From Thermoleophilaceae bacterium (GTDB lineage Bacteria; Actinomycetota; Thermoleophilia; Solirubrobacterales; Thermoleophilaceae): a stretch of DNA of 56,148 nt. Positions 8,060-35,845 of this stretch are shown one piece after another. The stretch is from contig JAXDJC010000219.1 of NCBI GenBank assembly GCA_034663685.1, forward strand, positions 1-56,148, written 5' to 3'. Below the pieces are notes generated by a model, which had not been told where the DNA came from, made no database searches, and saw only the letters and a program-made list of their open reading frames with translations. How positions within the stretch are numbered: position 1 is the first letter of the stretch; each line of letters starts with the position of its first letter. Position numbers and translations under genes: made by a program.

Positions 8060-8835
8060 ACGCTGAAGCCGTTCGCAATCTGATCCAAGAGCGACTGCTT
8101 GATGACCTCGATTGCGAGGTTGTCGAGGGCGACGCGTTCCGCTTCGGCTGCCAGACCCCCCTCGAATATCCTCGTGGCGATTCGATCGTTGTTTGGGTAG
8201 AGCCGCGTGGCGATCAGTTCGAGGTCTCGGATCTTGGCGAAGCGTACGTCGATGTAGTCCTGCATCCGCCGAAAGACCGGGGGGCTTTCGAAGACCTATT
8301 TGCCCAGATCGCTCGTGGGTTTGCTTTGAACGACGACGACGGGAACCTCAGCGGCGTGGGGCCGGCCGAACAGATCGGTGACCTCGTTTGGCGGGTCGCG
8401 TCCGCATCGGCGCAGGTCGCCCAAGCCGCCACGCTCGTCCCCCGTAAGGCGGACCATAAGGACCACGCGTTCGAACGTGAGGTAGCTGAGGCCCTGCGCG
8501 AGCGTGAAGTCCCTGTCGAGCACCGACGGCGCAAGCTCGTTGGCCAGTCAGAGCGCGTACACAAGGTGACGTTCTACGTGCCTGAGCGCAACGCAGTCCT
8601 AGAACCGGTGACCGCGCATTGGAACTCAGCCTCCAACGTGTATACCCGCCTGGGCGACTTGGGCCGCGCTCAGGCAAACGGCAACGGCGGCTACGGCCTG
8701 TTCTCCATCGTTGACGACAAACGCGCGGCTGACGCCGAGAAGATCGAGCAGCTTCTCGCTCAGGTCAGCAATGTCGTGCCCTGGACCCAGCACGAAGAAT
8801 GGCTCGCGGGGCTTACGTCGTCTCGCGGTACCTGA
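8056..8835 (+). CDS. DUF1828/DUF1829-like protein (IS cargo)
   Basis: The N-terminal pattern CQTPLEYPRGDSIVVWVEPRGDQFEVSDLGEA resembles DUF1828. The C-terminal GQSERVHKVTFYVP...LEPV resembles the DUF1829 core. This is recognition from memory only. Confidence 0.65.
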   Translation: MNAEAVRNLIQERLLDDLDCEVVEGDAFRFGCQTPLEYPRGDSIVVWVEPRGDQFEVSDLGEAYVDVVLHPPKDRGAFEDLFAQIARGFALNDDDGNLSGVGPAEQIGDLVWRVASASAQVAQAATLVPRKADHKDHAFEREVAEALREREVPVEHRRRKLVGQSERVHKVTFYVPERNAVLEPVTAHWNSASNVYTRLGDLGRAQANGNGGYGLFSIVDDKRAADAEKIEQLLAQVSNVVPWTQHEEWLAGLTSSRGT

Positions 8836-9787
8836 GCCGCCGCCCGCCAACCTGACCGGCAAGCCGCTTCATGCGCTCGGTATCGCTGATCTTGCGAGTT
8901 GAGAATCGGAAGTCGAACTCCGTCAGGTAGCGGTCTAGGTGCGCCCGGCTGACGTGATGGTGCGTCCCGTCCAGCGACCGCTTCAGCTGTGAGAAGTACG
9001 ACTCGGCCTGGTTGGTCGAGACATCGCCGCGCACGTACTCGGCCGCGTGGTGGTTCACGGTCGAGTGGTCGGCCAGCATCGGCGCGATCTGGTGACGGTA
9101 GGGGGGCCACTCGTCGGTATGAAGATGGGTGCGGGCAGGGTCGGTCTCCTCGCGGATCACGGCGGAGAGCGAGTCGCCCGTGACGTTCGGGACCGACCGG
9201 GACCGAACCTCACCGGTCTCACGCGAGACCAGCGCGACGATGGGCGTCTTGTCGGTCGCGCCCTGCTTGCCAACCCGTCGCGGATCGCCCTTGCGTCGGT
9301 TCTCAGGCTTGCCGCCATACCAAGTCTCGTCAGCGACGACACGACCGGAGAGAAGACCCGCGACGGGATCGCGCTTCATGGCCTCGCGGATGCGGTGGGT
9401 CATGTACCACGCGCTCTTAGGCGTCAGGGCGTACTTGCGCTCGATCTCGCGGGCGCTGACGCCGTTCTTCGAGGCGCACATTTCGAAGACCACGAACAGC
9501 CAAGTGCGAACGGGGATCTTGCTCCCGTGGAAGATCGTGTTGGTCAGGACCGAGAACTGCTTGCGGCACTCGGCGCACTTCCATACGCGCCGCTCGGACT
9601 GCTTGCCGGTGCGGGTCGTGCGAGAGGTCCCGTTCTTCGGGGTCAGGAAGTAGGGCGGCTTGGCCGACGCGCAATGCGGGCAGACCGGCTCACCGTTCCA
9701 ACGCAGGTCCTCAAGGAACCGGTAGGCGTCGGCCTCGGTGCTGATCTTCGCCGCGAGCTTGGGGATGCTGAGTTCCGAGTTCTTCAT
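8813..9787 (-). CDS. IS1595-family (ISXO2-like) DDE transposase; an alternative GTG start is at 9799
   Basis: N-terminal zinc ribbon (CPHC...CAEC), then VVADETWYGG, HLHTDEWPPY and TNQAESYFSQLKR DDE-type motifs. Confidence 0.9.
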   Translation of the reverse strand: MKNSELSIPKLAAKISTEADAYRFLEDLRWNGEPVCPHCASAKPPYFLTPKNGTSRTTRTGKQSERRVWKCAECRKQFSVLTNTIFHGSKIPVRTWLFVVFEMCASKNGVSAREIERKYALTPKSAWYMTHRIREAMKRDPVAGLLSGRVVADETWYGGKPENRRKGDPRRVGKQGATDKTPIVALVSRETGEVRSRSVPNVTGDSLSAVIREETDPARTHLHTDEWPPYRHQIAPMLADHSTVNHHAAEYVRGDVSTNQAESYFSQLKRSLDGTHHHVSRAHLDRYLTEFDFRFSTRKISDTERMKRLAGQVGGRRLRYRETT

Positions 9788-9817
9788 GACTTGACACACC
9801 CATCGTCTCAGACCTGC

Positions 9818-11723: not shown

Positions 11724-12764
11724 GTGCGCCGGGTCGCCGTGCCCTCACTGATCCGAGCAAAGGCGCCGCTTCGCATCAGCTTCGCCGGAGGCGGCACAGA
11801 CGTCCCACCGTTCCCCGAGCGCGAGGGCGGCCTCGTGCTGAACGCCACCATCAATCGCTTCGCCTACGGGACGCTGCGCCCGCGGGCGGACGAGCAGATC
11901 CAGATCGAGTCGGTGGATTTCGGCCAGACCGCGACCTACGGGGTGGACGACCGCCTGGTCTTCGACGGCAAGCTCGACCTGGCCAAGGCCGCGATCCGGG
12001 AGATCGTGGGCCGGGCCGGTTCCGGCTTCGAGCTGCTCCTCCACTCGAACGCGCCGCCCGGCTCGGGGCTCGGGTCGTCCTCCACGATGATGGTCGCGCT
12101 GGTGGGCCTGCTGAAGGAGTTCCGCAGCCTGCCGCTGACCGACTACGAGGTGGCCGAGCTGGCGTACCGGATCGAGCGCGAGGAGCTGGGCATCAAGGGT
12201 GGGCTCCAGGACCAGTACTCCGCCACGTTCGGCGGCTTCAACTTCATCGAGATGGGTGCCGACCGCGTGGTGGTCAACCCGCTGCGCGTGAGCCCCGACA
12301 CGGTGCACGAGCTCGAGCACAACATGCTGCTCTGCTACACGGGCCGCACGCGGGAGTCGAGCCGGATCATCGACGACCAGACCAGCCGCTTCGAGGGGGG
12401 CGAGGAGGAGACCCTTGCCGGCCTGCGCCTCCAGAAGGAGCTGGCGGTGGACATGAAGGACGCGCTGCTGCGCGGGAGGCTGTCCGAGTTCGGCGCGCTG
12501 CTCGACCGCGCCTGGCAGGCGAAGAAGCGGATGTCGCCGCGCATCACCACCGACGCGATCGACGCGATGTACGCGACCGCTCGCGAGACCGGCGCGCTCG
12601 GCGGGAAGGTGACGGGCGCGGGTGGCGGCGGCTACATCCTGTTCTACTGCGACTACCGCCACAAGCACCGCGTGGCCGAGGCGATGAGGGAGCTGGGCGG
12701 AGTGGTGGAGGAGTTCGCGTTCGTGCAGGAGGGGATGCGCACGTGGAGGGCACCGCTTGACTGA
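11724..12764 (+). CDS. hddA: GHMP-family sugar kinase, D-glycero-D-manno-heptose 7-phosphate kinase-like; the start may be the GTG at 11739
   Basis: APLRISFAGGGTD N-terminus and the GHMP motif PPGSGLGSSSTMMVAL. Followed directly by gmhA and gmhB. Confidence 0.75.
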   Translation: MRRVAVPSLIRAKAPLRISFAGGGTDVPPFPEREGGLVLNATINRFAYGTLRPRADEQIQIESVDFGQTATYGVDDRLVFDGKLDLAKAAIREIVGRAGSGFELLLHSNAPPGSGLGSSSTMMVALVGLLKEFRSLPLTDYEVAELAYRIEREELGIKGGLQDQYSATFGGFNFIEMGADRVVVNPLRVSPDTVHELEHNMLLCYTGRTRESSRIIDDQTSRFEGGEEETLAGLRLQKELAVDMKDALLRGRLSEFGALLDRAWQAKKRMSPRITTDAIDAMYATARETGALGGKVTGAGGGGYILFYCDYRHKHRVAEAMRELGGVVEEFAFVQEGMRTWRAPLD

Positions 12765-13344
12765 CGACGTGGCGGAGGCACTGGTCCGCGAGCGGCTGCG
12801 CGAGAGCGGCGCGGTGATCGCGGCGCTGCTCGAGAGCGACGCGCCCGCTCGCGTGGCCGAGGCCGCTGCGGTCGTGGCGGAGGCGATCGCCGCCGGCGGC
12901 AAGCTGCTCACGTTCGGCAACGGCGGCAGCGCCGCGGACGCGCAGCACATCGCGGCGGAGCTGGTGGGCCGCTACGTGCTCGACCGGGCCGCGCTGCCCG
13001 CGGTGGCGCTGGCCGAGAACTCCTCGACCGTGACCGCGGTGGCCAACGACTACTCCTACGAGGAGGTATTCAAGCGCCACGTGGAGGGCCTCGGCCGGCC
13101 CGGCGACGTGGCGCTCGGGATCTCCACGAGCGGCGGGTCGGAGAACGTGGTGCGCGGGCTGGCCGCCGCGCGCGAGCGCGGGCTGCGAACGATTGCGTTC
13201 ACCGGCGCGAGCGGCGGGCGCCTGGCCGCGGCCGCGGATATCTGCGTGCGTGTGCCGTCGGATGACACGCCCCACGTCCAGGAGGGGCACACCGTGCTGG
13301 CGCACGCGCTGTGTGAGCTCGTGGAGCGCGCCTGTGCCGGCTGA
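12757..13344 (+). CDS. gmhA: D-sedoheptulose 7-phosphate isomerase (SIS domain)
   Basis: GNGGSAADAQHIAAELVGRY and ISTSGGSENV motifs. 8-nt overlap with hddA. Confidence 0.85.
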   Translation: MTDDVAEALVRERLRESGAVIAALLESDAPARVAEAAAVVAEAIAAGGKLLTFGNGGSAADAQHIAAELVGRYVLDRAALPAVALAENSSTVTAVANDYSYEEVFKRHVEGLGRPGDVALGISTSGGSENVVRGLAAARERGLRTIAFTGASGGRLAAAADICVRVPSDDTPHVQEGHTVLAHALCELVERACAG

Positions 13345-13837
13345 GGCCGGCCCGGTTGCCTTCCTCGACCGCGACGGCACGATCAACCACCCGGCCGCGC
13401 CCGGCGAGTACATCGAGAGCTGGGACCAGTTCCGCTTCCTGCCGCGCGCGCCGGAGGCCATCGCCCTGCTGCGCGGCGCCGGCTTCAGGATCGTGGTGGT
13501 GACCAATCAGCGCGGCATCGCGCTCGGGCGGATGAGCGAGGCGGACCTGGAGGACATTCACCGGCGCATGCTCGCCGAGCTCGAGGGGGCGCATGCGTTC
13601 GTGGACGCCGTCTATCACTGCCCCCACGGCCACGGAGAGTGCGACTGCCGCAAGCCCCAGCCGGGGATGCTGCTGCGGGCGAGCCGCGAGCTGCCCGGGG
13701 TGGACCTCGAGCGCTCCGTGATGATCGGCGACTCCGAGAGCGACATGGAGGCGGGTAGGCGGGCCGGATGCCGCTGCGTGCGCATCGGCCCCGACCGCTC
13801 GCTCTACGACGCGGCCGTCGGGCTAACCGGCACCTGA
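13334..13837 (+). CDS. gmhB: D,D-heptose 1,7-bisphosphate phosphatase (HAD-IIIA)
   Basis: The GTG start overlaps the gmhA end. FLDRDGTIN, VVVTNQ, CxHxxxxxCxCRKP zinc motif and GDSESDMEAG. Confidence 0.8.
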   Translation: MPAEAGPVAFLDRDGTINHPAAPGEYIESWDQFRFLPRAPEAIALLRGAGFRIVVVTNQRGIALGRMSEADLEDIHRRMLAELEGAHAFVDAVYHCPHGHGECDCRKPQPGMLLRASRELPGVDLERSVMIGDSESDMEAGRRAGCRCVRIGPDRSLYDAAVGLTGT

Positions 13838-14506
13838 CTCGGCCAGCTCCGCAAGCCCCCAGAGGTCGCGCCACTCGTGGTCGAACGAAGCGTCCCCCGG
13901 CGGCGGCTCCTGATGGCGGTTGACCCATGCCGTCTGCATCCCCGCGCGGGCGGCCGGGCCGATGTCGTACTTGAACCCGAACGCCACGTGCAGCACGTTC
14001 TCCGGCGGCTCGCCGATCCGCTCGAGCGCGCGGGCGAAGACCTCGTCGGCCGGCTTGTAGGCGCGCACGTCCTCGGCCACCTGCACGATGTCGAACGGCA
14101 CCTCGAGGTTGCGCAGGCTGTGGGCCATGATGTCGCGGTCGGTGTTCGAGACGATCATCAGCCGCAGCCCGGCCTCGCGCGTCCGCGTGAGCGCGGGCCG
14201 GGTGTCCGGGAACGGCTGCCAGCTGCGCATGGCGCGCACGAGCGCCACGCCGTCGCCGTCCTCGTGGGGCCAGCCGCGTTCGTCGCAGAAGCGCACGAGC
14301 GTCTCGGCGAGGACCTCCCTGTAGGGCCGGTACTCGCCCTGGATCAGCTCGAACTGGATCGCCTCGAAGCGCTCGCGCAGCTCGCGGCCGGGGGCCGGCC
14401 GCTCCTCGCCGAGGCGCAGCGCCTTGGCATAGAGGAACGATCCGAATCCGCCCTCCCAGTCGATCAGCGTGCCGTAGCAGTCGAAGGTGGCGATCGTGGG
14501 GCGCAC
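13823..14506 (-). CDS. Haloacid dehalogenase type II / HAD-family hydrolase
   Basis: FDCYGTLIDWE (DxYGT) motif, SNTD and AFGFKYD motifs. Confidence 0.8.
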   Translation of the reverse strand: MRPTIATFDCYGTLIDWEGGFGSFLYAKALRLGEERPAPGRELRERFEAIQFELIQGEYRPYREVLAETLVRFCDERGWPHEDGDGVALVRAMRSWQPFPDTRPALTRTREAGLRLMIVSNTDRDIMAHSLRNLEVPFDIVQVAEDVRAYKPADEVFARALERIGEPPENVLHVAFGFKYDIGPAARAGMQTAWVNRHQEPPPGDASFDHEWRDLWGLAELAESGAG

Positions 14507-18088: not shown

Positions 18089-19060
18089 ATGAGGTTCCTG
18101 ATCACCGGTGGCGCCGGTTTCGTGGGCTCGCACCTCAGCGACGAGCTGCTCTCGCGCGGGCATCGCGTGCACGTGCTCGACGACCTCTCGACGGGCGGCA
18201 TCGACAACATCAGGCACCTCAAGGAGCGCGACGGGTTCGGGTACACGATCGAGTCCGCTTCGAACGCGCCGGTGGTGGCGGAGCTCGTGGACTCGGCGGA
18301 CGCGGTGTACCACCTGGCGGCCGCCGTGGGCGTGGAGCTGATCGTGGAGAGCCCCGTGCGCACCATCGAGACCAACGTTCACTGCACCGAGGTGGTGCTC
18401 GGCCAGGCGGCGAAGAAGAGGCGGCCCGTGTTCGTGGCGTCCACGAGCGAGGTCTACGGCAAGAGCACCGCGCTGCCCTACCGCGAGGACGGCGACCTGC
18501 TGCTCGGGCCGACGGTCAAGGGCCGCTGGTCGTACGCCTGCTCCAAGGCGATCGACGAGTTCCTCGCGCTGGCGTACTGGAAGGAGCGCAAGCTGCCAAC
18601 GGTGATCGGGCGCCTGTTCAACACCGTCGGCCCCCGGCAGACCGGCCGCTACGGGATGGTCATCCCCAACTTCGTGCGCCAGGCACTGGCGGCAAAGCCG
18701 CTCACGGTCCACGGCGACGGGACGCAGACGCGCTGCTTCTGCCACGTGCAGGACGTGGTGCGCGCGCTCGCAGACCTGATGGAGCGCGACGACGTGTACG
18801 GCGAGGTCTTCAACATCGGGGCCGAGGAGGAGATCTCGATCCAGGCGCTGGCCGAGCGGACGCGGCGGCTGGCCGGCTCCGAGGCCGAGATCGTGCACGT
18901 GCCCTACGACAAGGCCTACGAGGCCGGGTTCGAGGACATGCAGAGGCGCGTGCCCGACATCTCGAAGATCCGCGACCGGCTCGGCTGGGCGCCGGAGCGC
19001 ACTCTCGACGAGATCCTGGCCGACGTGCTCGAGTACCAGCGCGCTACGGGCGCGACCTAG
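18089..19060 (+). CDS. NAD-dependent nucleotide-sugar epimerase/dehydratase (extended SDR)
   Basis: TGGAGFVGSHL Rossmann motif, YACSK (YxxxK) catalytic motif and STSEVYG. Confidence 0.9.
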   Translation: MRFLITGGAGFVGSHLSDELLSRGHRVHVLDDLSTGGIDNIRHLKERDGFGYTIESASNAPVVAELVDSADAVYHLAAAVGVELIVESPVRTIETNVHCTEVVLGQAAKKRRPVFVASTSEVYGKSTALPYREDGDLLLGPTVKGRWSYACSKAIDEFLALAYWKERKLPTVIGRLFNTVGPRQTGRYGMVIPNFVRQALAAKPLTVHGDGTQTRCFCHVQDVVRALADLMERDDVYGEVFNIGAEEEISIQALAERTRRLAGSEAEIVHVPYDKAYEAGFEDMQRRVPDISKIRDRLGWAPERTLDEILADVLEYQRATGAT

Positions 19061-19400
19061 CTCGAGCGAGCGGCCGGCGCCGGAGCGCGGCGCGCAGCGC
19101 GGCTCCGAACATCACGAACGAGGAGCCGATGCCCGCGGCGACCAGTGCCGCGAAGCCGGTGAACGGCAGCTTGCTACCACCGCCGGGCACACCTCCGCCG
19201 CCTCCGAGGCCCCCTCCGCCGAGGCCTCCCGAATCCGACAGGCCTCCCGTGGAGACCTGGCCGGCGACCCCGTGGCCCAGCGGAGTGCTGAGCGCGGCGA
19301 CCACCAGGTTGGAGACCATCCCCGTGAAGTGGACGTGGACGTCGGCCGTCAACTGCAGCAGGGAGCCGTAGTCCTTTACGTGCGGCTTTGTGTACGTCAT
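19044..19400 (-). CDS. 118-aa LPXTG-type sorting-signal protein with a lasso-leader-like N-terminus
   Basis: These are the last 118 codons of the 871-aa track ORF, starting at ATG 19400 after GGTGA. C-terminus is LPFTG + hydrophobic helix + RRRPLARARSRP. A Gly-rich stalk precedes it. N-terminus is YTKPHVKDYGSLLQLTA. Confidence 0.65.
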   Translation of the reverse strand: MTYTKPHVKDYGSLLQLTADVHVHFTGMVSNLVVAALSTPLGHGVAGQVSTGGLSDSGGLGGGGLGGGGGVPGGGSKLPFTGFAALVAAGIGSSFVMFGAALRAALRRRPLARARSRP

Positions 19401-19450
19401 TGCTGTCACCGGCCTCACCCCAGGGGCCTCGTGCCCCTGCCCCTTCGAGG

Positions 19451-20374
19451 TCAAGATACATCCATGCGCCTGGATATGTGCTGATCGCCACGTCTCCAAA
19501 CGCGCAGTGCGTGCCAGGCCAGGTAGGCCCAGCGCCAGGCGTAGGCCGCGATCAGCCCGCGGCGCGACCTGCGCGCGAGCGGCGACCACCAGCGCATGAA
19601 CTCCGGCGACGGCAGTAGCTCGCCACGAAGAAGCGTGGCCTTCGGTCCCAGCCCCGGGGTCGTGCGCAGCCGCGCGAGGCCGGCCTCGACGGGCACGTCG
19701 GCAGGCCCTGCTGCCTCCGCGGACGGATCGACCCCGAGCCGAGCGAGCAGGCGCCGCCCGTCGGGGAGCAGGCCGAGGCCGGCCGCGAAGCAGGCCGTCG
19801 CTTCCATCCTCTCGGCCACCTCCAGCGCGCTGCGCCAGGAATCCTGGCCGGCGACGGCGAGCGCGCGGCGCAGATCCTCCAGCGGCTGGCCGGCGAGCGG
19901 GCCGTGGTGCCCGGCGTGCAGCGCCACGTGCGCGAGGCGGGCGGGCTCGCCGAGCACGCGCACGGTGCGGCGGCCGACCGACTGCTCCGTGGCGCCGGAG
20001 CGGAGGACCCGCCACGCGGCGCGCGGGTCGGCGGCCACGCCGGGCAGGGTCTCGTGCAGGTCCACCGCGAAGCCCTCCCGGTGCCAGGGCTGTGAGGGCG
20101 GCGACTCCATCCCAGGATGCGGCAGCGGGCCGAACTCGGGACGGAAGCCGAGCTCGGTGAGCGTCGCGCGCGCGGCCGCGATCCGGTCCGGGTCCACGAG
20201 CAGGTCGGAGTCTGCGTACCCCCGCAGCGCAGGGTCCTCGTACAGCCAGGTCGCGATCGACGGCCCCTTGAGGAGCACGGCGGCGACGTCCGCGGCCTCG
20301 AAGGCGGTCACCACCTCGGCCGTGACGGCGTCGACGGCCAGGGTCCACATCTCTCTGGCGGGCCGACCGTCCAC
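19451..20374 (-). CDS. Uncharacterised nucleotidyltransferase family protein (PF14907-like)
   Basis: VLLKGPSIATWLYEDPALRGYADSDLLVDPDRIAAARATLTELGF matches the remembered LKG...R...D-x-D-LLV...LG core pattern of NTP_transf_5. Confidence 0.7.
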   Translation of the reverse strand: MDGRPAREMWTLAVDAVTAEVVTAFEAADVAAVLLKGPSIATWLYEDPALRGYADSDLLVDPDRIAAARATLTELGFRPEFGPLPHPGMESPPSQPWHREGFAVDLHETLPGVAADPRAAWRVLRSGATEQSVGRRTVRVLGEPARLAHVALHAGHHGPLAGQPLEDLRRALAVAGQDSWRSALEVAERMEATACFAAGLGLLPDGRRLLARLGVDPSAEAAGPADVPVEAGLARLRTTPGLGPKATLLRGELLPSPEFMRWWSPLARRSRRGLIAAYAWRWAYLAWHALRVWRRGDQHISRRMDVS

Positions 20375-20386
20375 GGTCGCTCGGGC

Positions 20387-21622
20387 CTAGCGCGCCCTCC
20401 CGAGAAGGCGGTCGACCAGGCCGCCCCGGCGGATGAGCGGCTGGCGCGGGGGCAGGGCGGGCGGCGGCGCGGTGACCGCGGCCGGCGCCTCGGTGCGCTC
20501 GCCCGGCGACGGCCGCTGGGCGGCCACCGAGTCCACCGCGTCGCGGGTGTGCGTGAGCAGCTGCGCCGGGAGCACCTGGGTGTCCCCGCCCTCCTCCACC
20601 GCGGGCGTGTCCCCGGCGTGCCTGAGCGCGTTCGCCCCCGCCTCGCGGCCCACGATCTCCGCCAAGCCGGCGATCACCGCGGCCATGCCCATTCGGTTGA
20701 GGGCGTCGGACGCCGCGTCCCGGACGGGCTGTTCGTCGTCCTGGGTGGCGGTCAGGAGCGCGGGGACCGCGCGAGTGTGGTTGAGCGCGCCGGCCGCGCC
20801 GGCCGCCGAGCGGCGCATCTCGGGATCGTCGCTGCCGAGCTCGGCGATCACGGGCTCCACGATGCGCGCGTCGCCGAGGAAGCCCGCGGCGCGCACGAGC
20901 CCGGGGGACACGGCACCGTCGGTGAGCGGTCCGAGCACGCGGTCGGCCACGGCCGGGCCGAGCCGGCCCAGGATCGCCTCGGCGGTGCCTGCGGCGGTCG
21001 GTCCCGGAGGGTTGCGAAGCGCGGACACGGCGCGGTCGGCGATGGCGTCGCGCGCGCCCGGCCCGCGCGGGTCGGCCTGGAGGAGGCGGTCCAGCGTCTG
21101 GTGGTGCGATTCGTCGAGCGGCGGGGCGTCGGGGGCAAGCAGGCGCGCGACGAGCACCTCGGGCGCACCCTCGGCGCGCCAGTCCGTGAGCAGCTCCAGC
21201 GCCAGGGCCGCCGGCTCCTCGTGGCGGTCGGGGATGCCGATCGCGCAGTCGACCAGCGGCTCGATCACGGCGGGGCTGCCGAGCCCGCGCAGCGAGCCGA
21301 TGGCCGCGACCCGGACGGCCGGCTCGGGGTCCTTCAGCGCCCCGGCCAGGTCCGCCGTCACGTCGTCGGCGGGAAAGGCCGACAGCGCCTCGGCCGCCTG
21401 CACGCGCACGACCACGCCCACGTCCCACGCCACGCCGTCGTCGTCGGTCGCGAGCTCGCGGTAGCGCAGCGCGTCGCGCAAGCCGTCGAGCCGGCGCTTG
21501 CGCAGCAGCCGCGCGACGTTCGGTTTCCGGGAACCACCAAGACGCACCCGAGGAGAATAGTCCCGCTCGTGGCGCCGCGCGACCGCTGCAAGTGCTATCC
21601 CCAAGAGCTTGGCGGAAGGCAT
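20387..21622 (-). CDS. HEAT-repeat protein
   Basis: Repeated D-P-x-x-x-V-R-x-x-A-x-x-x-L units (DPEPAVRVAAIGSLRGLG, DDPEMRRSAAGAAGAL, DDEQPVRDAASDALNRMG). The chosen start is ATG 21622; the upstream part of the track ORF is Ala/Ser/Arg junk. Confidence 0.7.
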   Translation of the reverse strand: MPSAKLLGIALAAVARRHERDYSPRVRLGGSRKPNVARLLRKRRLDGLRDALRYRELATDDDGVAWDVGVVVRVQAAEALSAFPADDVTADLAGALKDPEPAVRVAAIGSLRGLGSPAVIEPLVDCAIGIPDRHEEPAALALELLTDWRAEGAPEVLVARLLAPDAPPLDESHHQTLDRLLQADPRGPGARDAIADRAVSALRNPPGPTAAGTAEAILGRLGPAVADRVLGPLTDGAVSPGLVRAAGFLGDARIVEPVIAELGSDDPEMRRSAAGAAGALNHTRAVPALLTATQDDEQPVRDAASDALNRMGMAAVIAGLAEIVGREAGANALRHAGDTPAVEEGGDTQVLPAQLLTHTRDAVDSVAAQRPSPGERTEAPAAVTAPPPALPPRQPLIRRGGLVDRLLGRAR

Positions 21623-22169
21623 TGGCACCGCAGCGGGACCGGAGTGGATCCTGTTCCATGACCGCTCGCTCGAGCCGCGCCTGGGCGCGACCGAGGCGCT
21701 CGCGGCGGCGCTCGAACGCGTGGCCGGGCTGCCGGAGCCGGCGCTGCTCGCGGGCGTGGTGGTGGACGGCGGCGGCCTGGTGGACCGGAGCCGGGCCGCC
21801 TGGTACCGCCGCGCGCCCACGGAGCTGGCGATGGCGGCCGCGGAGGTCCGGCTGCTGCCGATCCGCGCCACGGCGGGCCCCGCGCTCGTCCGCCGCTCGC
21901 TGGCGGAAGCGGATCCGCCGCCCGGCGGCGCGCGGGCGGAGCCGGGCGCCATGCTCGAGTGGACCGCGCGGCTGCTGCGCGACCGTGCCGGCTACCTGGT
22001 GCCCGAGGCCGAGTTCGTGGCTCCGGCCCCCCTGCGCGACCCGGCGCTCGACCCCCGCACGGCGGCGCGGCTCGTGACCGGCGGCGCGTTCACGGGCACG
22101 GATCGGATCAGGGTGGGGGCGGAGCTGATCGAGCGAGCCCGGCGGCGAGCGCGCGGCCCAGCGTCCTGA
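21609..22169 (+). pseudogene. N-terminally truncated GT2 paralog lacking the DxD motif (remnant or non-catalytic)
   Basis: Collinear with residues from about 85 onward of the convergent GT2 at 22108-22986. EWILFHDRSLEP aligns with DWIWLLDDDTVARP, LLPIRATAG with LLPLRATTF, and LEWTARLLRDRAGYLVPEA with IEYTARILRGATGYFVPAS. The nucleotide-binding half is missing. Confidence 0.45.
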
Positions 22170-22986
22170 CGCTGCCGGGGCTGGCGCGGTTGGCGCCCAG
22201 GTACTCGACGGCCGAGCGCAGGAGCGACCACGCCAGGGCCGGCTTCTCCTCCGGCGCCCAGGCCGAGCCGCGCAGCATGTAGACCGTGTTGCGGGCGTGG
22301 TGGAAGAAGCGGCGGTCGTCGCCCACGGCCGTGTGCTTCGACGGCGTACGGTGCTCCACCACGCTCGCCGGCACGAAGTAGCCGGTCGCCCCGCGGAGGA
22401 TGCGCGCCGTGTACTCGATGTCGTCGGCCTGGAAGAAGAAGTGGCGCAGCGGCAGGCCGGCGGCGTCCACCGCGGCGCGCGAGAGCAGCAGCGACACGAA
22501 GGTGGTGGCCCGCAGCGGCAGCAGCCCGCTCCGGACAGCGTCGACCAGTGCCTGTGGGTCGCGCCGCCTGATCGTGGGGCGGTTCATCGGGTGGGGCTCG
22601 CCGTCACGCCATTCGACTCGGCTCGCGAGCAGCGCGGGCGCTGCGGCTCCGTTCAGCGTCGACAGGGCGGCGAGCAGCTGCGCCAGCGCGTCGGGCCGCG
22701 CCACCGTGTCGTCGTCGAGCAGCCAGATCCAGTCGGCGCCGCCGGCGTGCGCCGCGCGGACCGCCTCGTGGTAGCCGCCGGCGCCGCCCACGTTCTCGGG
22801 CAGCTCGATCACCTCCACGCCGGGGAACTCCTGCGCCAGCATGGCGGCGGTGCCGTCGCTGCTTGCGTTGTCGACCACCAGCACGCCATCGGGCGGCCGG
22901 TCCTGGGCGAGCACCGCCGCGAGCGTCTGGCGAAGCACATCGCGGCGGTTGTGTGTGACGAGGGCCGCGACGACCCTCGCGCTCAT
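22108..22986 (-). CDS. Glycosyltransferase family 2
   Basis: VVAALVTHNRRD, VVDNASSDGT and LLDDDT (DxD) motifs. ATG at 22986, ATGA-coupled to the upstream wzz-like gene. Confidence 0.85.
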   Translation of the reverse strand: MSARVVAALVTHNRRDVLRQTLAAVLAQDRPPDGVLVVDNASSDGTAAMLAQEFPGVEVIELPENVGGAGGYHEAVRAAHAGGADWIWLLDDDTVARPDALAQLLAALSTLNGAAAPALLASRVEWRDGEPHPMNRPTIRRRDPQALVDAVRSGLLPLRATTFVSLLLSRAAVDAAGLPLRHFFFQADDIEYTARILRGATGYFVPASVVEHRTPSKHTAVGDDRRFFHHARNTVYMLRGSAWAPEEKPALAWSLLRSAVEYLGANRASPGSVRTLGRALAAGLARSAPPPP

Positions 22987-23759
22987 GGCGGCGGCGGTCC
23001 GTGCGACGCGGGGCGAGCGGACATCTGGCGCGCGGCGTCCACGTCGGAGCGGTTGCGCCCGCCGGAGCGCAGCGCCACGAGGCCGGCGCCGACGGCGAGG
23101 CCGAAGAGGGCTCCGAACACGGCGCTCTGTGTGGGCTTGGGGCTCACCGGGATGGTCGACGGGCGCGGCTCCTCGATCAGCTGCGGCCCGGCCGTCCCGA
23201 CACGGGCGAGCGTGTCGAGCTGGGCAATCTGGTCCTGTATCGCCTGTCCGCGCGGCCCGGCTTGGTCGACGCTGGAGAGCGACCCGTAGCGGCTCTGGAG
23301 TACCCGCTTGACCCCCAGCGCGCGTGCGGTGTCGCGCTCGCGCTTGACCTTGTAGTAGGTGGTGACGTAGTCCTTCGCGAGGACGGCTGCCACGAATCCG
23401 TTCGAGGTGGTCGCGACGACCTCCACGATCAGGGTGTCGCGGACCGGGCGCGCTTCGACATCGGCTGCGACCTCGCCGGGCGTCATCTTCAGGATGGGGT
23501 AGTCCTTCGCGGTCCGGATAGCCACGTCGAGCGAGTTCATGTCGAAGGCGGCGGTGGCCAGCTTGATCTCCTCCTTCACGTCGGGTTCGCCGAACTGCGG
23601 CCCGAGGACCTGGAGCGCCGGCGGCGCTCCCTTCGCGAAGTACAGCCGCGCGATGGACTCGTAGTGGTCCGGTTGGCGCGAGGACAGGACGTAGGCGACG
23701 CCGCCGACGAGAACCGCGATTCCGAGGACGAGGAGCACGTTGACCGACCTGCGGCTCAT
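22983..23759 (-). CDS. Polysaccharide chain-length determinant (Wzz/PCP-like) protein
   Basis: N-terminal and C-terminal TM helices flank a soluble coiled region. Lies between the Wzy-like gene and a GT2. Confidence 0.7.
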   Translation of the reverse strand: MSRRSVNVLLVLGIAVLVGGVAYVLSSRQPDHYESIARLYFAKGAPPALQVLGPQFGEPDVKEEIKLATAAFDMNSLDVAIRTAKDYPILKMTPGEVAADVEARPVRDTLIVEVVATTSNGFVAAVLAKDYVTTYYKVKRERDTARALGVKRVLQSRYGSLSSVDQAGPRGQAIQDQIAQLDTLARVGTAGPQLIEEPRPSTIPVSPKPTQSAVFGALFGLAVGAGLVALRSGGRNRSDVDAARQMSARPASHGPPPP

Positions 23760-25171
23760 GCAGGCACCTCCGCAAGTTCATAGCGCCGGACCGCGATCCC
23801 GGCGAAGTACCAGAAGATCATTCCGCCGAACCCGTAGAACGCGTCGCCCGAGAGCAGGGTGATCACGAAGAAGGTCATTACCGCGAAAACTAGGAGATCC
23901 AGCCCGGCTGGGCGCCGGCGGGCGTTGCGCCACGCATTTCGGTAGGTGCTCACGAGGGCGATCATGACGAGTAGGAATCCGAACGGGCCGACCTGGAGCA
24001 GCGTGCTCAGGTAGCCGTTGTCGGTCACGCGGATGCCACCGCCTCCGAGGCGGGTCGCCTCGCCCGCCTGACCGATCCCCACTCCGCCTGGTCGCGAAAG
24101 TCCGAACGGGACCAGGGCAAGCGACGCGCCGGTCCGGTCGCCGGCAGACTGATCCTGGCCCACGCTACCGAAGGTGCCGACGCGGCCCCCGATAGCCTGC
24201 CCGGTCGATCCTCCGAACACGACCGGCCCGAGTACCACGAGCAGGAGCAGAAGCGGGACGACCCGCTTGAGGGCGGCCCCGCGCGAGACCAGGACGATTG
24301 CTATCAAAGCGATCACGAGACCCACCCATGCGCTCCGGACGTACGTGAGTGCGAGGGCGCCGAGGACCGTGAGCAGCCCCACGAACGCCCACGGCGTAAG
24401 GCGCCGCATGGTCAGGTAGCAAATCGTCGTGAACGCCATCACGAGCGCGAACGTGCCCGGCGAGTTGAGTGTTCCCCACACCCGGATGCGCCCCGCCTCG
24501 GGCGATCCCCCGGTCTCGAACTGCGCTGCCTTCTGCCACACGGAGTCCCATTCGGGGAGCGGCACGACGTAGTACTGGCGGAACGCGTACAGGGCCAGGA
24601 ACGGGCCGATCGCGATCATCAGTCGAGACAGCACCGGCCGCGCCTCCTTGGCCTCGCGGTAGCCGATCACGAAGCAGCCGGCGGCCGTGATGTACGCGAA
24701 GAACGCGAAGACCGCCGCCGGAGGGGCGATCACGAAGCCCATCGGCATCCCCACCGCGTACCCGCCGGCGACGCAAAGGATCATGCGTCGCGCGCGCTTG
24801 CTCAAAGTGACCTGCTGAATCTCAAGGCCCACGATCACGGCGGTCACGAGGAACGGGGCGAGCGCCAGCGGCTCGGTGCCGGTGAGTGGCTCGCTCAGCA
24901 GGAAGATCCTGCGGATGAACGGGGCGAGCAGCCAGGTGAGCCACACCGCCACCAGGCCGGCCGTGCGGTCCCGTGCGTAGAGCCCCACGGTCACCACGAC
25001 CAGCGCGACTGTGCAGCCGGCCTGAATCGAGATCAGCGACACCTTCGCTGTGAGGAGCGCGACGAAAATGGCGAGCACCCACCAGGCGGGCCCGCTCGTG
25101 GGGAGGCCTAGGGTGCTGGGCGGCGGGCGCGGGGCGGGCGGGCCGGCCGGCACCGGTTCAGTCCCGCGCAA
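23756..25171 (-). CDS. O-antigen polymerase/ligase family (Wzy-like) membrane protein
   Basis: 471 aa with about 10-12 TM helices and a large loop containing RSAWVGLVIALIAIVL. 4-nt overlap with the wzz-like gene. Confidence 0.75.
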   Translation of the reverse strand: MRGTEPVPAGPPAPRPPPSTLGLPTSGPAWWVLAIFVALLTAKVSLISIQAGCTVALVVVTVGLYARDRTAGLVAVWLTWLLAPFIRRIFLLSEPLTGTEPLALAPFLVTAVIVGLEIQQVTLSKRARRMILCVAGGYAVGMPMGFVIAPPAAVFAFFAYITAAGCFVIGYREAKEARPVLSRLMIAIGPFLALYAFRQYYVVPLPEWDSVWQKAAQFETGGSPEAGRIRVWGTLNSPGTFALVMAFTTICYLTMRRLTPWAFVGLLTVLGALALTYVRSAWVGLVIALIAIVLVSRGAALKRVVPLLLLLVVLGPVVFGGSTGQAIGGRVGTFGSVGQDQSAGDRTGASLALVPFGLSRPGGVGIGQAGEATRLGGGGIRVTDNGYLSTLLQVGPFGFLLVMIALVSTYRNAWRNARRRPAGLDLLVFAVMTFFVITLLSGDAFYGFGGMIFWYFAGIAVRRYELAEVPA

Positions 25172-33238: not shown

Positions 33239-34059
33239 GCGACGGGCTCCGGCCGCGGGCGCTCACCGTGCTCGACTACGCCCGCCTCGTCCGTGAGCCA
33301 CTGCGTTTCGCCTGGCGCGAGCTCTCCGGCAGCCGCGCGCCTGGCCTCTACCGGCCGCGCGGCACCGACGTCCGCGTCCACGTCCGCCACAACTACCGCG
33401 ATGACGAGTGGCACGACATGTTCCCGCTGCTCGAGATCTTCCGTGAGCGCTGCTACGAGCCGCCCGGTCAGGTCGCGAACGCGCACGGGCGGCCGCGGTA
33501 CGTGATCGACCTCGGTGGACATCTCGGCTACTTCGGCGCGTTCGCGCTGACCCGATTCCCGGGCTGCCACGTGGTGAGCTTCGAGCCTGAGCCGGAGCAG
33601 GCGGCGCTGATCCGGCGCACGATCGACGTGAACGGATTGGCCGGGCGCTGGGAGCTGGTCGAGGCGGCCGCGCAGCCGCGGGACGGGACGGTCGCGCTCG
33701 TGGCGGGCCGCTCGATCGGCAGCCACATCGCCGCGCTTGGCGGGGGCGGGGGCACGGCCACTATCGAGGTGGCCGCCCGCGACCCGTTCCCCTTCCTCGG
33801 GGGCGCCGACCTCGCGAAGATCGACATCGAGGGGGCGGAGTGGGCACTGCTGGACGACGACCGCTTCGCCGGCGCGCGGCCGCGCGCGGTCGTCCTGGAG
33901 TATCACTCGGCCGGCTGCCCGGCGGGCAACGCCAAGCGCCATGCCTCCGATCGTCTCCGGGCGATGGGCTACGAGGTGTTGGCGGCGCCGGGCGACACGA
34001 ACCCCGACAAGGGTGACTTCTGGGGGCAGGGGCTGCTATGGGCCTGGCTCGCGCCCTGA
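33235..34059 (+). CDS. FkbM-family methyltransferase
   Basis: GTGA overlap with the upstream gene. IDLGGHLGYFG, SFEPEPEQ and KIDIEGAEWALL motifs. Confidence 0.8.
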   Translation: MSDGLRPRALTVLDYARLVREPLRFAWRELSGSRAPGLYRPRGTDVRVHVRHNYRDDEWHDMFPLLEIFRERCYEPPGQVANAHGRPRYVIDLGGHLGYFGAFALTRFPGCHVVSFEPEPEQAALIRRTIDVNGLAGRWELVEAAAQPRDGTVALVAGRSIGSHIAALGGGGGTATIEVAARDPFPFLGGADLAKIDIEGAEWALLDDDRFAGARPRAVVLEYHSAGCPAGNAKRHASDRLRAMGYEVLAAPGDTNPDKGDFWGQGLLWAWLAP

Positions 34060-34072
34060 TTCACTTCCGGCG

Positions 34073-35845
34073 ATGCTCTCGCGCCTGAAGGGCCGGAACG
34101 AGCTCTGGCTGAGGGGCGTGGCAATTCTCCTCCCGGCGCTCGCGCTCGCGGTCGTGGCCTGGTCTCACCGTTGGATGTCCGACGACGGGTTCATCAATCT
34201 GCGCGTCACGCAGAATCTGCTCGACGGCCACGGTCCGGTATTCAACGTCGGCGAGCGCGTCGAGGCCTATACGAGCCCCCTGTGGATCGCACTGCTGACG
34301 GTCGGGCAGAAGCTCACGTTCGGGCTCCCTCTCGAGTGGGTCGCCGTGCTGCTCGGGATGGGTTTTGCGAGCGTCGGGCTGGCGGCGGCGTCACTGGGCA
34401 GCGCCCGCCTGTGGGACGCCCCGGCGGATGCAGGCGGGCGGGCGCGAGTTCCCGTGGGGGCGCTCGTCGTGCTCGCTCTTCCTCCGTTTTGGGACTTCGC
34501 CTCTTCAGGTCTCGAGACCGGGCTCTCCTTCGCCTGGCTCGGGTTGACCTTCCTCGGACTCGTGGAGTGCATCGCGTTCGGATCCGAAGCTGTCACGCGG
34601 CGACGACTCGGACGTGCGCTCCGGCAACCTGCCCCAATAGCCGTCCTGGTCGGACTCGGCCCGCTGGTGCGGCCGGACTTTGCGATCTTCTCGGTCGCCC
34701 TCCTGGCCGCGCTCGTGTATGCCCGCTGGCCCGCGCGCCGGTGGCGCGCGTTGACAGCCCTGGTCTGGGCCGTGGCCCTCCCGGCCGCGTACGAAGTTTT
34801 CCGCGCGGGCTACTTCGCGGCCCTCGTTCCGACCACGGCGCTGGCGAAGAGCGCGGGTGAATCGCGCTGGCACAGGGGGTGGACGTACCTGCTGAACCTG
34901 GTCGAGCCGTACTGGCTCTGGGTACCCGCGGCGGCGCTGTGCGTCCTGGTGCTCGCACTGCTGCGCTCCGCAAGCGGCCGGGACCGGGGCGCTGTCGCCG
35001 TCCTCGCCGCCTGCGTCGGGTCGGGGCTGATTCATGTCGTCTACGTCACCCGAGTGGGCGGGGATTTCATGCACGCGCGCCTGCTTCTCCCCAGTGTCTT
35101 CGCGCTGATGCTCCCGGCAATGCTGGTACCGATCCCGCGACGACTCGTGGAGCGGGCCGCGATTGCGGTGGTCGCCGTCTGGGCTCTCGTCGCGGGGGCG
35201 ACCCTGCGCTATCCCCAAGCCGAGGCGCGCCCCGAGATAGACAACCTGCGCGAGGCCTATGTGCAGGGCACCGGAGATCCGCACCCGGTTCGCCTCGGTG
35301 CTTTTCGCGCGCTTTCCTACATGTGGGAGGTCGATGGGGAGTACGACCGAGAGCTGGCGCAGCGCATGCCTGCGATCGTCGCCTTTCGCACCGCACCCGG
35401 TCCGAAGCGAATCGAGGGCCGTCCGGCGACGTCGCTCCGCGCATCGGTGGTGGACAGCTACGAGGCGATCGGCCTCGCCGGATACGCGGCCGGGCCGAAC
35501 GTGTACATCGTCGACCTGCACGGACTCGCGGAGCCGATCGCGGCGCGCACCGAGGCGGCGTCGACCTGGAGAGCTGGGCACGAGAAGATGCTGCCCAACG
35601 CGTGGACGCTTGCGCGCTTTGCCGATCCGGCCAGCCTGCACCTGACTGCTGCGTCGGCGCGCGCGGTGGAGGCGGCGCGCCGCGCGATCGGGTGCGGCGA
35701 GCTGCACGATCTGCTCAGGGCGATCGAGGAGCCGCTCGACGCCGGGCGCTTCGTGGACAACCTCGGCGCGGCCGTGAGGCTGCGCTCGCTGCGGGTACCG
35801 CGCGATCCCGAGCAGGCCGCGCGCGCTCTCTGCGGCGCCGGGTGA
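34073..35845 (+). CDS. Polytopic membrane glycosyltransferase, GT-C fold (arabinofuranosyl- or mannosyltransferase-like)
   Basis: 590 aa with more than 10 TM helices and a first-loop acidic motif WMSDDGFINLRV. C-terminal soluble domain. Confidence 0.65.
   Translation: MLSRLKGRNELWLRGVAILLPALALAVVAWSHRWMSDDGFINLRVTQNLLDGHGPVFNVGERVEAYTSPLWIALLTVGQKLTFGLPLEWVAVLLGMGFASVGLAAASLGSARLWDAPADAGGRARVPVGALVVLALPPFWDFASSGLETGLSFAWLGLTFLGLVECIAFGSEAVTRRRLGRALRQPAPIAVLVGLGPLVRPDFAIFSVALLAALVYARWPARRWRALTALVWAVALPAAYEVFRAGYFAALVPTTALAKSAGESRWHRGWTYLLNLVEPYWLWVPAAALCVLVLALLRSASGRDRGAVAVLAACVGSGLIHVVYVTRVGGDFMHARLLLPSVFALMLPAMLVPIPRRLVERAAIAVVAVWALVAGATLRYPQAEARPEIDNLREAYVQGTGDPHPVRLGAFRALSYMWEVDGEYDRELAQRMPAIVAFRTAPGPKRIEGRPATSLRASVVDSYEAIGLAGYAAGPNVYIVDLHGLAEPIAARTEAASTWRAGHEKMLPNAWTLARFADPASLHLTAASARAVEAARRAIGCGELHDLLRAIEEPLDAGRFVDNLGAAVRLRSLRVPRDPEQAARALCGAG

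Follow-up and report, generated by a model that had tools for sequence, protein, structure and literature searches.

Small proteins of Thermoleophilia combining a lasso-type leader with a putative cell wall sorting signal

The window analyzed here (the whole stretch of 56,148 nucleotides from a Thermoleophilaceae bacterium, contig JAXDJC010000219.1) contains a 118-codon gene, termed the mini-gene, whose product joins a leader like that of lasso peptides to a C-terminal signal like that of sortase substrates. The translation of its open reading frame (ORF) reads MTYTKPHVKDYGSLLQLTADVHVHFTGMVSNLVVAALSTPLGHGVAGQVSTGGLSDSGGLGGGGLGGGGGVPGGGSKLPFTGFAALVAAGIGSSFVMFGAALRAALRRRPLARARSRP, and its parts follow each other in the order leader-like N terminus MTYTKPHVKDYGSLLQLTA, core-like segment DVHVHFTGMVSNLVVAALSTP, Gly-rich spacer, KLPFTG, a 20-residue hydrophobic segment, and RAALRRRPLARARSRP (Table 1). 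Leaders of ribosomally synthesized and posttranslationally modified peptides (RiPPs) are usually seen as handles on small secreted peptides, and sortase substrates are usually seen as Sec-exported proteins. A preliminary description of the window had proposed a hybrid of the two, i.e., a RiPP-style leader on a wall-anchored Gly-rich stalk within a glycan locus, and the evidence from the protein family, the leader, and the core segment supports this proposal. The mini-protein is probably derived from a lasso precursor, tailored via its leader, and displayed on the cell wall as a surface protein. The gene travels with lasso-type tailoring genes, namely, those of a PF14907 nucleotidyltransferase, a clade of HprK-like kinases, and a HEAT-repeat protein, and in some genomes also with PqqD/B1, B2, and an ABC exporter. 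Modification, cleavage, export, and anchoring of the mini-protein, as well as the reader of its leader in the source genome, are what we infer from these associations.

Relatives of the mini-protein were collected by an exhaustive phmmer search of 1.84e9 representatives (E ≤ 1e-3), which yielded a family of 58 proteins with lengths of 108 to 198 amino acids (aa). A word-indexed search performed poorly because the Gly-rich spacer swamped the word index; it returned 2 proteins with the single query (one of them an 87%-identical relative) and 12 with the family alignment. The family corresponds to 58 clusters at 50% identity, found so far in Thermoleophilia and unclassified Actinomycetota. An alignment of 57 sequences displayed a mean column identity of 24%, with P6, G12, L78, G82, and G92 being invariant and Y3, D10, L14, T18, P79, F80, T81, A89, G99, and R103 being conserved in at least 90% of the sequences. 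The pattern Y..P.[LVIM]...G.....T was present in 54 of the 60 retrieved sequences and LPxTG in 58 of 60, which confirmed that members carrying the leader motif also tend to carry the LPFTG signal. The homologs thus keep the N-terminal motif, the lack of which the preliminary description had named as speaking against the hybrid, and the sorting signal it had called textbook (LPFTG, a 20-residue helix, and an Arg tail) is indeed present. The common architecture comprises the leader, a conserved segment of about 20 residues mostly ending in S-x-P, a spacer of variable length (31% G, 2.6% K+R, and 9.1% D+E), and [K/R/E]LPFTG[Y/F/L] followed by a transmembrane (TM) segment and LRRR. HMM (hidden Markov model) scans of the members placed the family outside every Pfam and NCBIfam family, and it is undescribed so far. 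The AlphaFold2 (AF2) model of the mini-protein was of low confidence (predicted local distance difference test [pLDDT] score of 66.8 and predicted template modeling [pTM] score of 0.31) and is compatible with disorder in the spacer and a TM helix at the C terminus. The C-terminal anchor reached a 19-residue hydropathy window of at least 1.6 in 39 of 62 members. A DNA-pattern scan of metagenome contigs for the C-terminal signal gave 8 matches and no family members; two of the matches (L130 and L136) were ordinary Sec-signal proteins with LPFTGF from similar high-GC metagenome contigs.

The preliminary description had noted that residues 3 to 19 fit the lasso leader pattern with Val in place of Leu, and this fit turned out to reflect a leader that more than 100 Thermoleophilia lasso clusters (among those listed) share. 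The generic expression Y..P.[LVIM]...G.....T matched twice in the six-frame translation of the window, compared to 0.04 matches expected from shuffled sequences. The second match (YDEPRILVPGIVLSLT; positions 56080 to 56127, reverse strand) lies inside a gene for a MOP/Wzx-type flippase (55003 to 56133) and lacks the D-[YH]-G signature; it was taken as a probable chance match, and the expression alone is therefore suggestive but not decisive. What was decisive for the mini-gene being real is the family evidence, which confirmed that the observation is far beyond chance. We recast the family leader as a degenerate DNA pattern and scanned 596 Gb of GTDB genomes, for which about 3 chance matches were expected. 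The pattern was found at no fewer than 119 loci, nearly all in metagenome-assembled genomes (MAGs) of Solirubrobacterales, Thermoleophilaceae, or Gaiellales. Among the matches listed, 120 of 122 matching ORFs encoded 34 to 106 aa (nearly all fewer than 80 aa) without an LPFTG signal. The surroundings of the 117 short-precursor loci among those listed were scored as 8-kb blocks with clade HMMs seeded from Pfam-verified genes. A lasso cyclase homolog was detected in 104 to 105 of these blocks, an HprK-like kinase in 76 to 77, B2 in 68, and PqqD in 63, and Pfam identified HprK, Asn_synthase, and Transglut_core3 in one of them (L015).

Further comparisons concerned the leader itself. The NCBI model NF033521 (lasso_leader_L3), which is independent of our sequences, matched 29 of 57 family members and NF033528 matched 7 of 57, all of them below threshold (best E value for NF033521, 1.2e-4). 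A clade leader HMM built from the short precursors gave a single match in the window (888 segments), located at residues 3 to 19/22 of the mini-protein, with E values of 1.6e-4 to 1.6e-5. The YxxPxL motif at positions −17 to −12 and the Thr at position −2 constitute the register for recognition by B1 and B2 (PMC10368454). Cleavage after A19 puts the residues of the mini-protein at Y−17, P−14, V−12, and T−2, matching this published register, and a B2 cleavage site was predicted at A19|D20. As judged by these sequence comparisons, residues 1 to 19 were shown to represent a bona fide lasso-type leader, homologous to the leaders of Thermoleophilia lasso clusters.

The segment following the leader was compared between 62 anchored members and 103 unique short precursors from cyclase-positive loci (among those listed). 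Asp or Glu occurred at core positions 7 to 9 in 102 of the 103 short precursors, whereas 3 of the 62 anchored members carried such a residue. Residue +1 was Asp in 33 of 62 anchored members, while it was Ala or Gly in 90 of 103 short precursors; an [S/T]-x-P terminus was present in 70 of the latter. The core of the window protein, DVHVHFTGM, has no Asp/Glu at positions 7 to 9 and lacks the combination of a small residue and a ring acid, which agrees with the preliminary description, according to which it cannot form a canonical macrolactam. Because Asp/Glu is missing at positions 7 to 9 and residue +1 is mostly Asp, neither a macrolactam nor a lasso fold can form in the anchored family. Subfamily 2 retained the motif DL[ST]FSSP, matching short-precursor C termini (DLTFSTP or ELTFSG), including that of the precursor encoded in the same locus in L141, and pairwise alignments of anchored members with short precursors covered the leader plus the core. 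The roughly 21 residues after the leader were thereby shown to be a degenerate core in which the ring-forming Asp/Glu has been lost. Loss of the ring from a lasso precursor, together with the gain of a spacer and a sorting signal, is the best description of the family.

About 11 genomic contexts of family members were available, and lasso-type genes recurred in them (Table 2). A PqqD-type RiPP recognition element (RRE) protein and a lasso B2 protease are encoded 1.5 to 4.1 kb from the family gene in four loci (L009, L119, L138, and L141), with B2 scores of 71 and 77 bits exceeding the curated NF033537 cutoff of 33. The PqqD-like/RRE partner that the preliminary description had suggested looking for is thus present in these four family loci, but none was found in the 56-kb window. 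A cyclase is encoded near the family gene in L138 and L141 only, where the family gene is neighbored by a complete lasso cluster that includes a 50-aa precursor of its own. L009 contains the gene order ABC-ABC2-PqqD-HprK-B2-NT5 without a cyclase, and the anchored protein is the sole leader-bearing ORF. Since there is neither a cyclase nor another ORF with a leader in this locus, the anchored protein is the only plausible substrate of the L009 B1, B2, kinase (K), and nucleotidyltransferase (N) proteins. Compared to the short-precursor loci listed, the vicinity of the family gene was enriched in NT5 (7/9 versus 14/117; P = 4e-5) and HEAT (5/9 versus 2/117; P = 1e-5), as determined by Fisher tests on groups whose locus sizes differ.

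HprK-like kinases are encoded directly downstream of the anchored gene in L138 (7593 to 8537), L139 (10550 to 11509), and L142 (11430 to 12347). These family-adjacent kinases were 47 to 57% identical to each other and 28 to 37% identical to kinases of lasso operons, including a paralog in the same locus, and they form a dedicated HprK-like clade. Polysaccharide genes were present in 9 of the 11 family contexts. Genes for Bac_transf priming sugar transferases adjoin both short and anchored precursors (L012, 355 to 517 and 2112 to 3761; L058, 6375 to 7844; L138, 8620 to 10149), which suggests that lasso-type genes and polysaccharide synthesis are generally linked in Thermoleophilia. The 10-kb flanks of the family loci contained no sortase domain.

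Table 2. Spacing (bp) between the family gene and the closest homolog of each partner (NT5, PF14907-type nucleotidyltransferase)
Locus	NT5	HEAT	HprK	PqqD	B2	Cyclase
Window	54	990	none	none	none	none
L142	54	1753	0	none	none	none
L139	46	none	1	none	none	none
L119	2	0	4521	4144	3702	none
L138	3773	2652	1	2466	2015	3147
L141	5307	2877	1847	1525	1876	2484
L009	3383	none	1941	1646	1967	none
L140	none	none	none	none	none	none
L058	none	none	none	none	none	none

In the window, the mini-gene is the last gene of a same-strand block encoding a family 2 glycosyltransferase (GT2), the Wzy_C protein, the Wzz-like protein, another GT2, the HEAT protein, the PF14907 nucleotidyltransferase, and the mini-protein (Table 1). 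L142 and the P0078 contig share the synteny of this block, with nucleotidyltransferases of 55 to 62% identity in the relatives; in L142, an HprK-like kinase gene follows the family gene, whereas the window has no such kinase gene. The block sits in a large Wzx/Wzy-type glycan locus with a MOP flippase, many glycosyltransferases (GTs), and GT-C enzymes. The nucleotidyltransferase retains the catalytic G37...D55xD57 motif and all family-invariant residues (K36, G37, D55, D57, H107, H153, and D167). Its AF2 model (pLDDT, 90.7) had LnuA, MenT1, ANT(2'')-Ia (4xje and 5cfs), and FKRP as Foldseek neighbors. The structures 4xje and 5cfs are the nearest structural models reported for PsmN (PMC6993621), the N enzyme of a lasso pathway in which the kinase PsmK generates a phospho-Ser and PsmN attaches hexoses to it (PMC6993621, PMC9266682). 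The window nucleotidyltransferase is a predicted tailoring enzyme of this lasso N type, and a 45%-identical homolog adjoins a canonical lasso cluster (L143). FKRP is a ribitol-phosphate transferase with the same fold as the model, which hints at a possible transfer of phospho-sugars or alditols, not nucleotides, by PF14907 enzymes. No RRE-like winged helix was found in the nucleotidyltransferase, whose AF2 model consists of helices alone in its C-terminal half, and a phmmer search against PDB sequences gave spurious TALE-repeat matches only.

Table 1. Features of the mini-gene, its product, and the neighboring genes in the window
Feature	Position	Strand	Basis or remark
Lasso-leader/LPFTG mini-protein gene	19044..19400	-	118 aa; stop codon 19044-19046
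Leader-like N terminus, aa 1-19	19344..19400	-	Y3 (-17), P6 (-14), V8 (-12), D10, G12, L14, T18 (-2)
Putative degenerate core-like segment, aa 20-40 (DVHVHFTGMVSNLVVAALSTP)	19281..19343	-	Ends in family-conserved S-x-P (S38); without Asp/Glu at 7-9
Gly-rich, K/R-poor flexible spacer, aa 41-77	19170..19280	-	Composition; AF2 pLDDT <50 at residues 39-52 and 60-66
LPFTG pentapeptide, aa 78-82	19155..19169	-	Sequence and family conservation
Hydrophobic membrane-spanning segment, aa 83-102	19095..19154	-	Hydropathy; AF2 helix 81-107, pLDDT about 80-93
Arg-rich tail, aa 103-118 (RAALRRRPLARARSRP)	19047..19094	-	Sequence and family alignment
PF14907 (NTP_transf_5) nucleotidyltransferase	19451..20374	-	50 nt upstream of mini-gene; Pfam E 2e-24
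HEAT_2-repeat protein, recurrent family partner	20387..21622	-	Start uncertain
GT2	22108..23010	-	Upstream of HEAT gene
Wzz-like two-TM protein	22983..23759	-	
Wzy_C-domain protein	23756..25171	-	

The mechanism that we propose builds on what is known of lasso precursors. B1 binds Y−17, P−14, and L−12, while B2 needs B1 and Thr−2 (PMC10368454); K enzymes act on leader-bearing linear precursors and can be stimulated by B1, and N adds sugar to the phosphate (PMC9266682, PMC10368454). In the cytoplasm, the leader would dock the anchored precursor onto an RRE or straight onto the tailoring enzymes. The window holds only the nucleotidyltransferase and the HEAT protein beside the gene, and reading of the leader would therefore have to fall to these two proteins or to a factor acting in trans. 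A Ser residue, with the conserved S-x-P (S38 here) as the best candidate, may then be modified by the kinase, the PsmN-like nucleotidyltransferase, or both, and the expected modification would be a phosphate plus sugar, as on pseudomycoidin. Where B1 and B2 exist, the leader would be cut at TA|D. The K/R-poor N-terminal part might cross the membrane by way of the ABC exporter of the cluster or by N-tail translocation, for which the C-terminal anchor would be the driving element. A sortase encoded elsewhere would cleave LPFT|G and join the stalk to peptidoglycan via Thr81, so that the conserved 20-residue head would end up at the tip of a flexible stalk.

Several results weigh against a leader-tailored, wall-displayed lasso derivative. 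By hydropathy, the mini-protein has no N-terminal signal peptide, as it lacks a cationic n-region with an h-region behind it and thus a Sec/Tat signal; classical sortase sorting therefore cannot run as known. The corresponding statement of the preliminary description holds on this basis, with the qualification that residues 25 to 40 are moderately hydrophobic (Kyte-Doolittle 11-residue peak, 1.9). A Sec signal or first TM segment at these residues was rejected, since an N-domain 19-residue window of at least 1.6 was reached in 7 of 62 members only, and the stretch is not family-wide. The lasso-leader models recommended for checking the idea gave a divided answer: NF033521 detected about half of the family at subthreshold scores, but the window protein itself matched no NCBIfam lasso-leader model at E ≤ 1. 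It likewise had no match to PF00746 or TIGR01167 at E ≤ 1, and these anchor HMMs barely scored the family (PF00746, 2 of 57 members at an E value of 0.04; TIGR01167, none), although both are short-motif models and insensitive. The search with the clade leader HMM is partly circular because its training set had been pulled with the family's own pattern, and the enrichment of NT5 and HEAT genes was computed across unequal locus sizes. No PqqD/RRE, B2, HprK, or cyclase was found in the window with unfiltered clade HMMs (E ≤ 10) and Pfam scans of sizeable ORFs, and Pfam scans of sizeable ORFs detected no sortase domain; these absences apply to the 56-kb window only. Finally, three contexts (L140, L058, and the P0021 contig) are devoid of any lasso-type gene, and the choice of S38 as the modified residue is a guess.

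Other explanations of the mini-gene were weighed against the same evidence. Long spurious ORFs are common in high-GC genomes, and the frame of the mini-gene stays open for 871 codons further upstream, as would be expected if it were a chance ORF in high-GC DNA and no real gene. The gene has, however, good coding potential, with a coding-like GC3/GC2 pattern (G+C content at third codon positions [GC3] of 0.86 overall; for codons 1 to 27, GC3 of 0.93 and GC2 of 0.33). The family of 58 homologs at no more than 56% identity, in which both ends are conserved while the spacer varies, and the conserved synteny effectively refute this explanation. Further features of the gene are an SD (Shine-Dalgarno)-like GGTGA 5 nt ahead of the ATG and the annotation of the same 118-aa gene by public gene callers on 7 contigs. 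A comparison of nonsynonymous and synonymous changes (dN/dS) with the 87%-identical relative (L001) gave a single synonymous change in codons 1 to 27, too few to bear on the question. It is also improbable that the leader is vestigial, i.e., that an ordinary small LPXTG protein arose from a lasso precursor and that its N terminus now serves just as an atypical export or insertion signal. Such a protein could do without the RRE, B2, and kinase genes that are missing from the window and without the lasso-type genes that are missing from three contexts, and the moderate hydrophobicity of residues 25 to 40 would suit an insertion signal, but this stretch is not a family trait. The positions contacted by RRE and B2 (Y−17, P−14, [VI]−12, and T−2), together with D10, G12, and L14, are invariant or at least 90% conserved in spite of the 24% column identity, which argues against decay of the leader, as do the tight, enriched linkage to NT5, HprK, and HEAT and the presence of B1/B2 in four loci. 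In particular, L009 keeps B1, B2, K, and N with the anchored protein as its sole leader-bearing ORF.

In L138 and L141, the family gene adjoins a complete lasso biosynthetic gene cluster whose own short precursor shares the leader; there, the tethered leader might titrate B1/B2 or the ABC exporter of the coresident lasso pathway, making the protein a regulatory decoy or immunity factor and not a product. We consider this role highly improbable: in the window, L142, L139, and L009, no short precursor or cyclase is encoded nearby, a dedicated kinase clade and an adjacent nucleotidyltransferase argue for a substrate, and the conserved sorting signal and long spacer would be superfluous. A role as glycan carrier is unlikely as well but deserves a fuller account. 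The Wzx/Wzy polysaccharide would be ligated outside the membrane by the Wzy_C protein, acting as a PglL/WaaL-type O-oligosaccharyltransferase (O-OTase), onto the Ser of AA[LVI]S-x-P, and sortase would fix the glycoconjugate; leader and nucleotidyltransferase would serve only in priming or quality control. The window, L142, the P0078 contig, and L009 each have a Wzy_C gene within the same strand block, and the window encodes the MOP flippase, many GTs, and GT-C enzymes, with polysaccharide genes in most family contexts. The conserved S-x-P lies in an Ala-rich stretch, and AALS38TP/AAVSAP resembles the PglL sequon WPAAASAP (PMC4850263), although by eye only; O-OTase genes often adjoin their target genes (PMC3643930). 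On the other hand, the Wzy_C domain covers ordinary O-antigen polymerases too, no NCBIfam model gave a name to the window protein, and Wzy_C is missing from the flanks of L138, L139, L140, and L141. A glycan carrier would also leave the conserved cytoplasmic-type lasso leader, the kinase, and the nucleotidyltransferase unexplained.

A lasso-derived, leader-tailored surface protein accounts for these features, and a more specific version of this reading can be put forward tentatively, although we hold it to be doubtful. In this version, co-opted RiPP machinery (leader, RRE/B2, HprK-like kinase, and PsmN-like nucleotidyltransferase) would make a protein in place of a peptide, namely, a leader-processed, phospho-glycosylated, Sec-independent, and sortase-fixed stalk that covalently primes or anchors the wall polysaccharide of the locus.

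The family resembles several known systems in part. As in kinase/nucleotidyltransferase lasso clusters (paeninodin, pseudomycoidin, and Bsf; A, B1/PqqD, B2, C, D, K, and N), the leader carries YxxPx[L/V/I] at −17 to −12 and Thr at −2, and family loci contain a PF14907-type nucleotidyltransferase, an HprK-like kinase, PqqD, B2 passing NF033537, and ABC transporters. In two loci (L138 and L141), the family gene even lies inside such a cluster, and the DLTFS-x-P motif at the C-terminal end of the core in the local short precursors persists in subfamily 2. Unlike lasso precursors, the anchored polypeptide runs on for 60 to 150 residues into a spacer and a sortase-type signal, its candidate Ser is internal and not C-terminal, and most family loci, including the window, are without a cyclase; a PF14907-type N gene adjoins the mini-gene, but an HprK-like K gene is not adjacent in the window. 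With LPXTG substrates of Gram-positive sortases, the family shares the tripartite signal of LPFTG, about 20 hydrophobic residues, and an Arg-rich tail. It differs from them in that a cytoplasmic-type RiPP leader replaces the Sec/Tat signal, curated anchor HMMs leave it unscored, and no sortase is encoded nearby. PglL/PilO O-oligosaccharyltransferase targets (WPAAASAP) are similar, by inspection only, in their Ser-x-Pro within an Ala-rich stretch and in the Wzy_C gene of the block; in contrast to these systems, the window Wzy_C protein is a candidate OTase.

In PEP-CTERM/exosortase systems, polysaccharide loci harbor genes for small proteins of low complexity that end in a sorting signal, and these proteins carry Sec signals. 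Haft's HPr-rel-A system (TIGR04352/TIGR04353) associates PqqD-like and HprK-like genes. The sorting motif and the phylum of our family differ from those of both, and the HPr-rel-A cutoffs were not reached by the L009 HprK-like kinase (24.8 bits compared to 200 for TIGR04352) or by the L119 PqqD (22 bits compared to 35 for TIGR04353).

The family thus joins a RiPP leader and a sortase signal and comes with its own kinase clade, a nucleotidyltransferase, a HEAT partner, and one cyclase-less B1/B2 operon. In full-text searches of the literature, no paper biologically linked lasso peptides with LPXTG, RRE with sortase, or lasso peptides with Solirubrobacter, co-mentions being incidental. If the proposed reading is true, leader-guided posttranslational chemistry would extend to cell envelope proteins, and the family would be a natural case in which a sortase substrate is delivered independently of Sec. 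The widespread but uncharacterized PF14907 N enzymes, as well as the repeated association of lasso genes with polysaccharide loci, would also gain a testable function.

The short precursors are of interest in their own right. At least 117 lasso-type precursors in Thermoleophilia MAGs (L011 to L129) share the leader YExPx[IV]xD[HY]GDLxELTA and include two large core classes, namely, GQ..G..TD..FP..TPK.DLTFSTP and the two-Cys class ACLGG.GGDA...SNPAAGCKSNP. No work on lasso peptides of Thermoleophilia was found in our literature searches, and these sequences represent a large untapped precursor set in an undercultured class of soil bacteria.

The 60 nt located 5′ of the mini-gene (19401 to 19460) are 100% identical to those of the relative L001, in spite of differences between the two coding sequences. 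This stretch carries a hairpin (CAGGGGC-ACGAG-GCCCCTG) whose stability did not exceed that of shuffled sequences (z = −0.98) and which L142 does not have. A search for regulatory sites gave no promoter-like site and no terminator-like site beside the mini-gene; a single terminator-like match (21498 to 21516, forward strand) was within chance expectation. On the strand opposite to the GT2 and HEAT genes, a 186-aa ORF (21609 to 22169, forward strand; GC3, 0.92) lies between them; it had no Pfam or NCBIfam match, and the gene calls of contigs L002 and L003 include it as well. The glycan locus further contains genes for mycobacterial-style GT-C enzymes and a carbamoyltransferase (33737 to 35845, 38095 to 39438, 39435 to 42224, and 42431 to 44182), the GT-C set comprising an AftB-like arabinofuranosyltransferase (NF041481; E value of 9e-83, below cutoff), PMT_2, and GT87. 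An IS1595-type transposase gene (8813 to 9799, reverse strand; Zn_ribbon_IS1595 and DDE_Tnp_IS1595 in the annotation of the matching contig L002) is located between housekeeping and sugar genes. Positions 11724 to 14506 contain a group of genes for a GHMP kinase, two HAD phosphatases, and a protein with a SIS domain, and this set could belong to a heptose-nucleotide pathway feeding the glycan locus.

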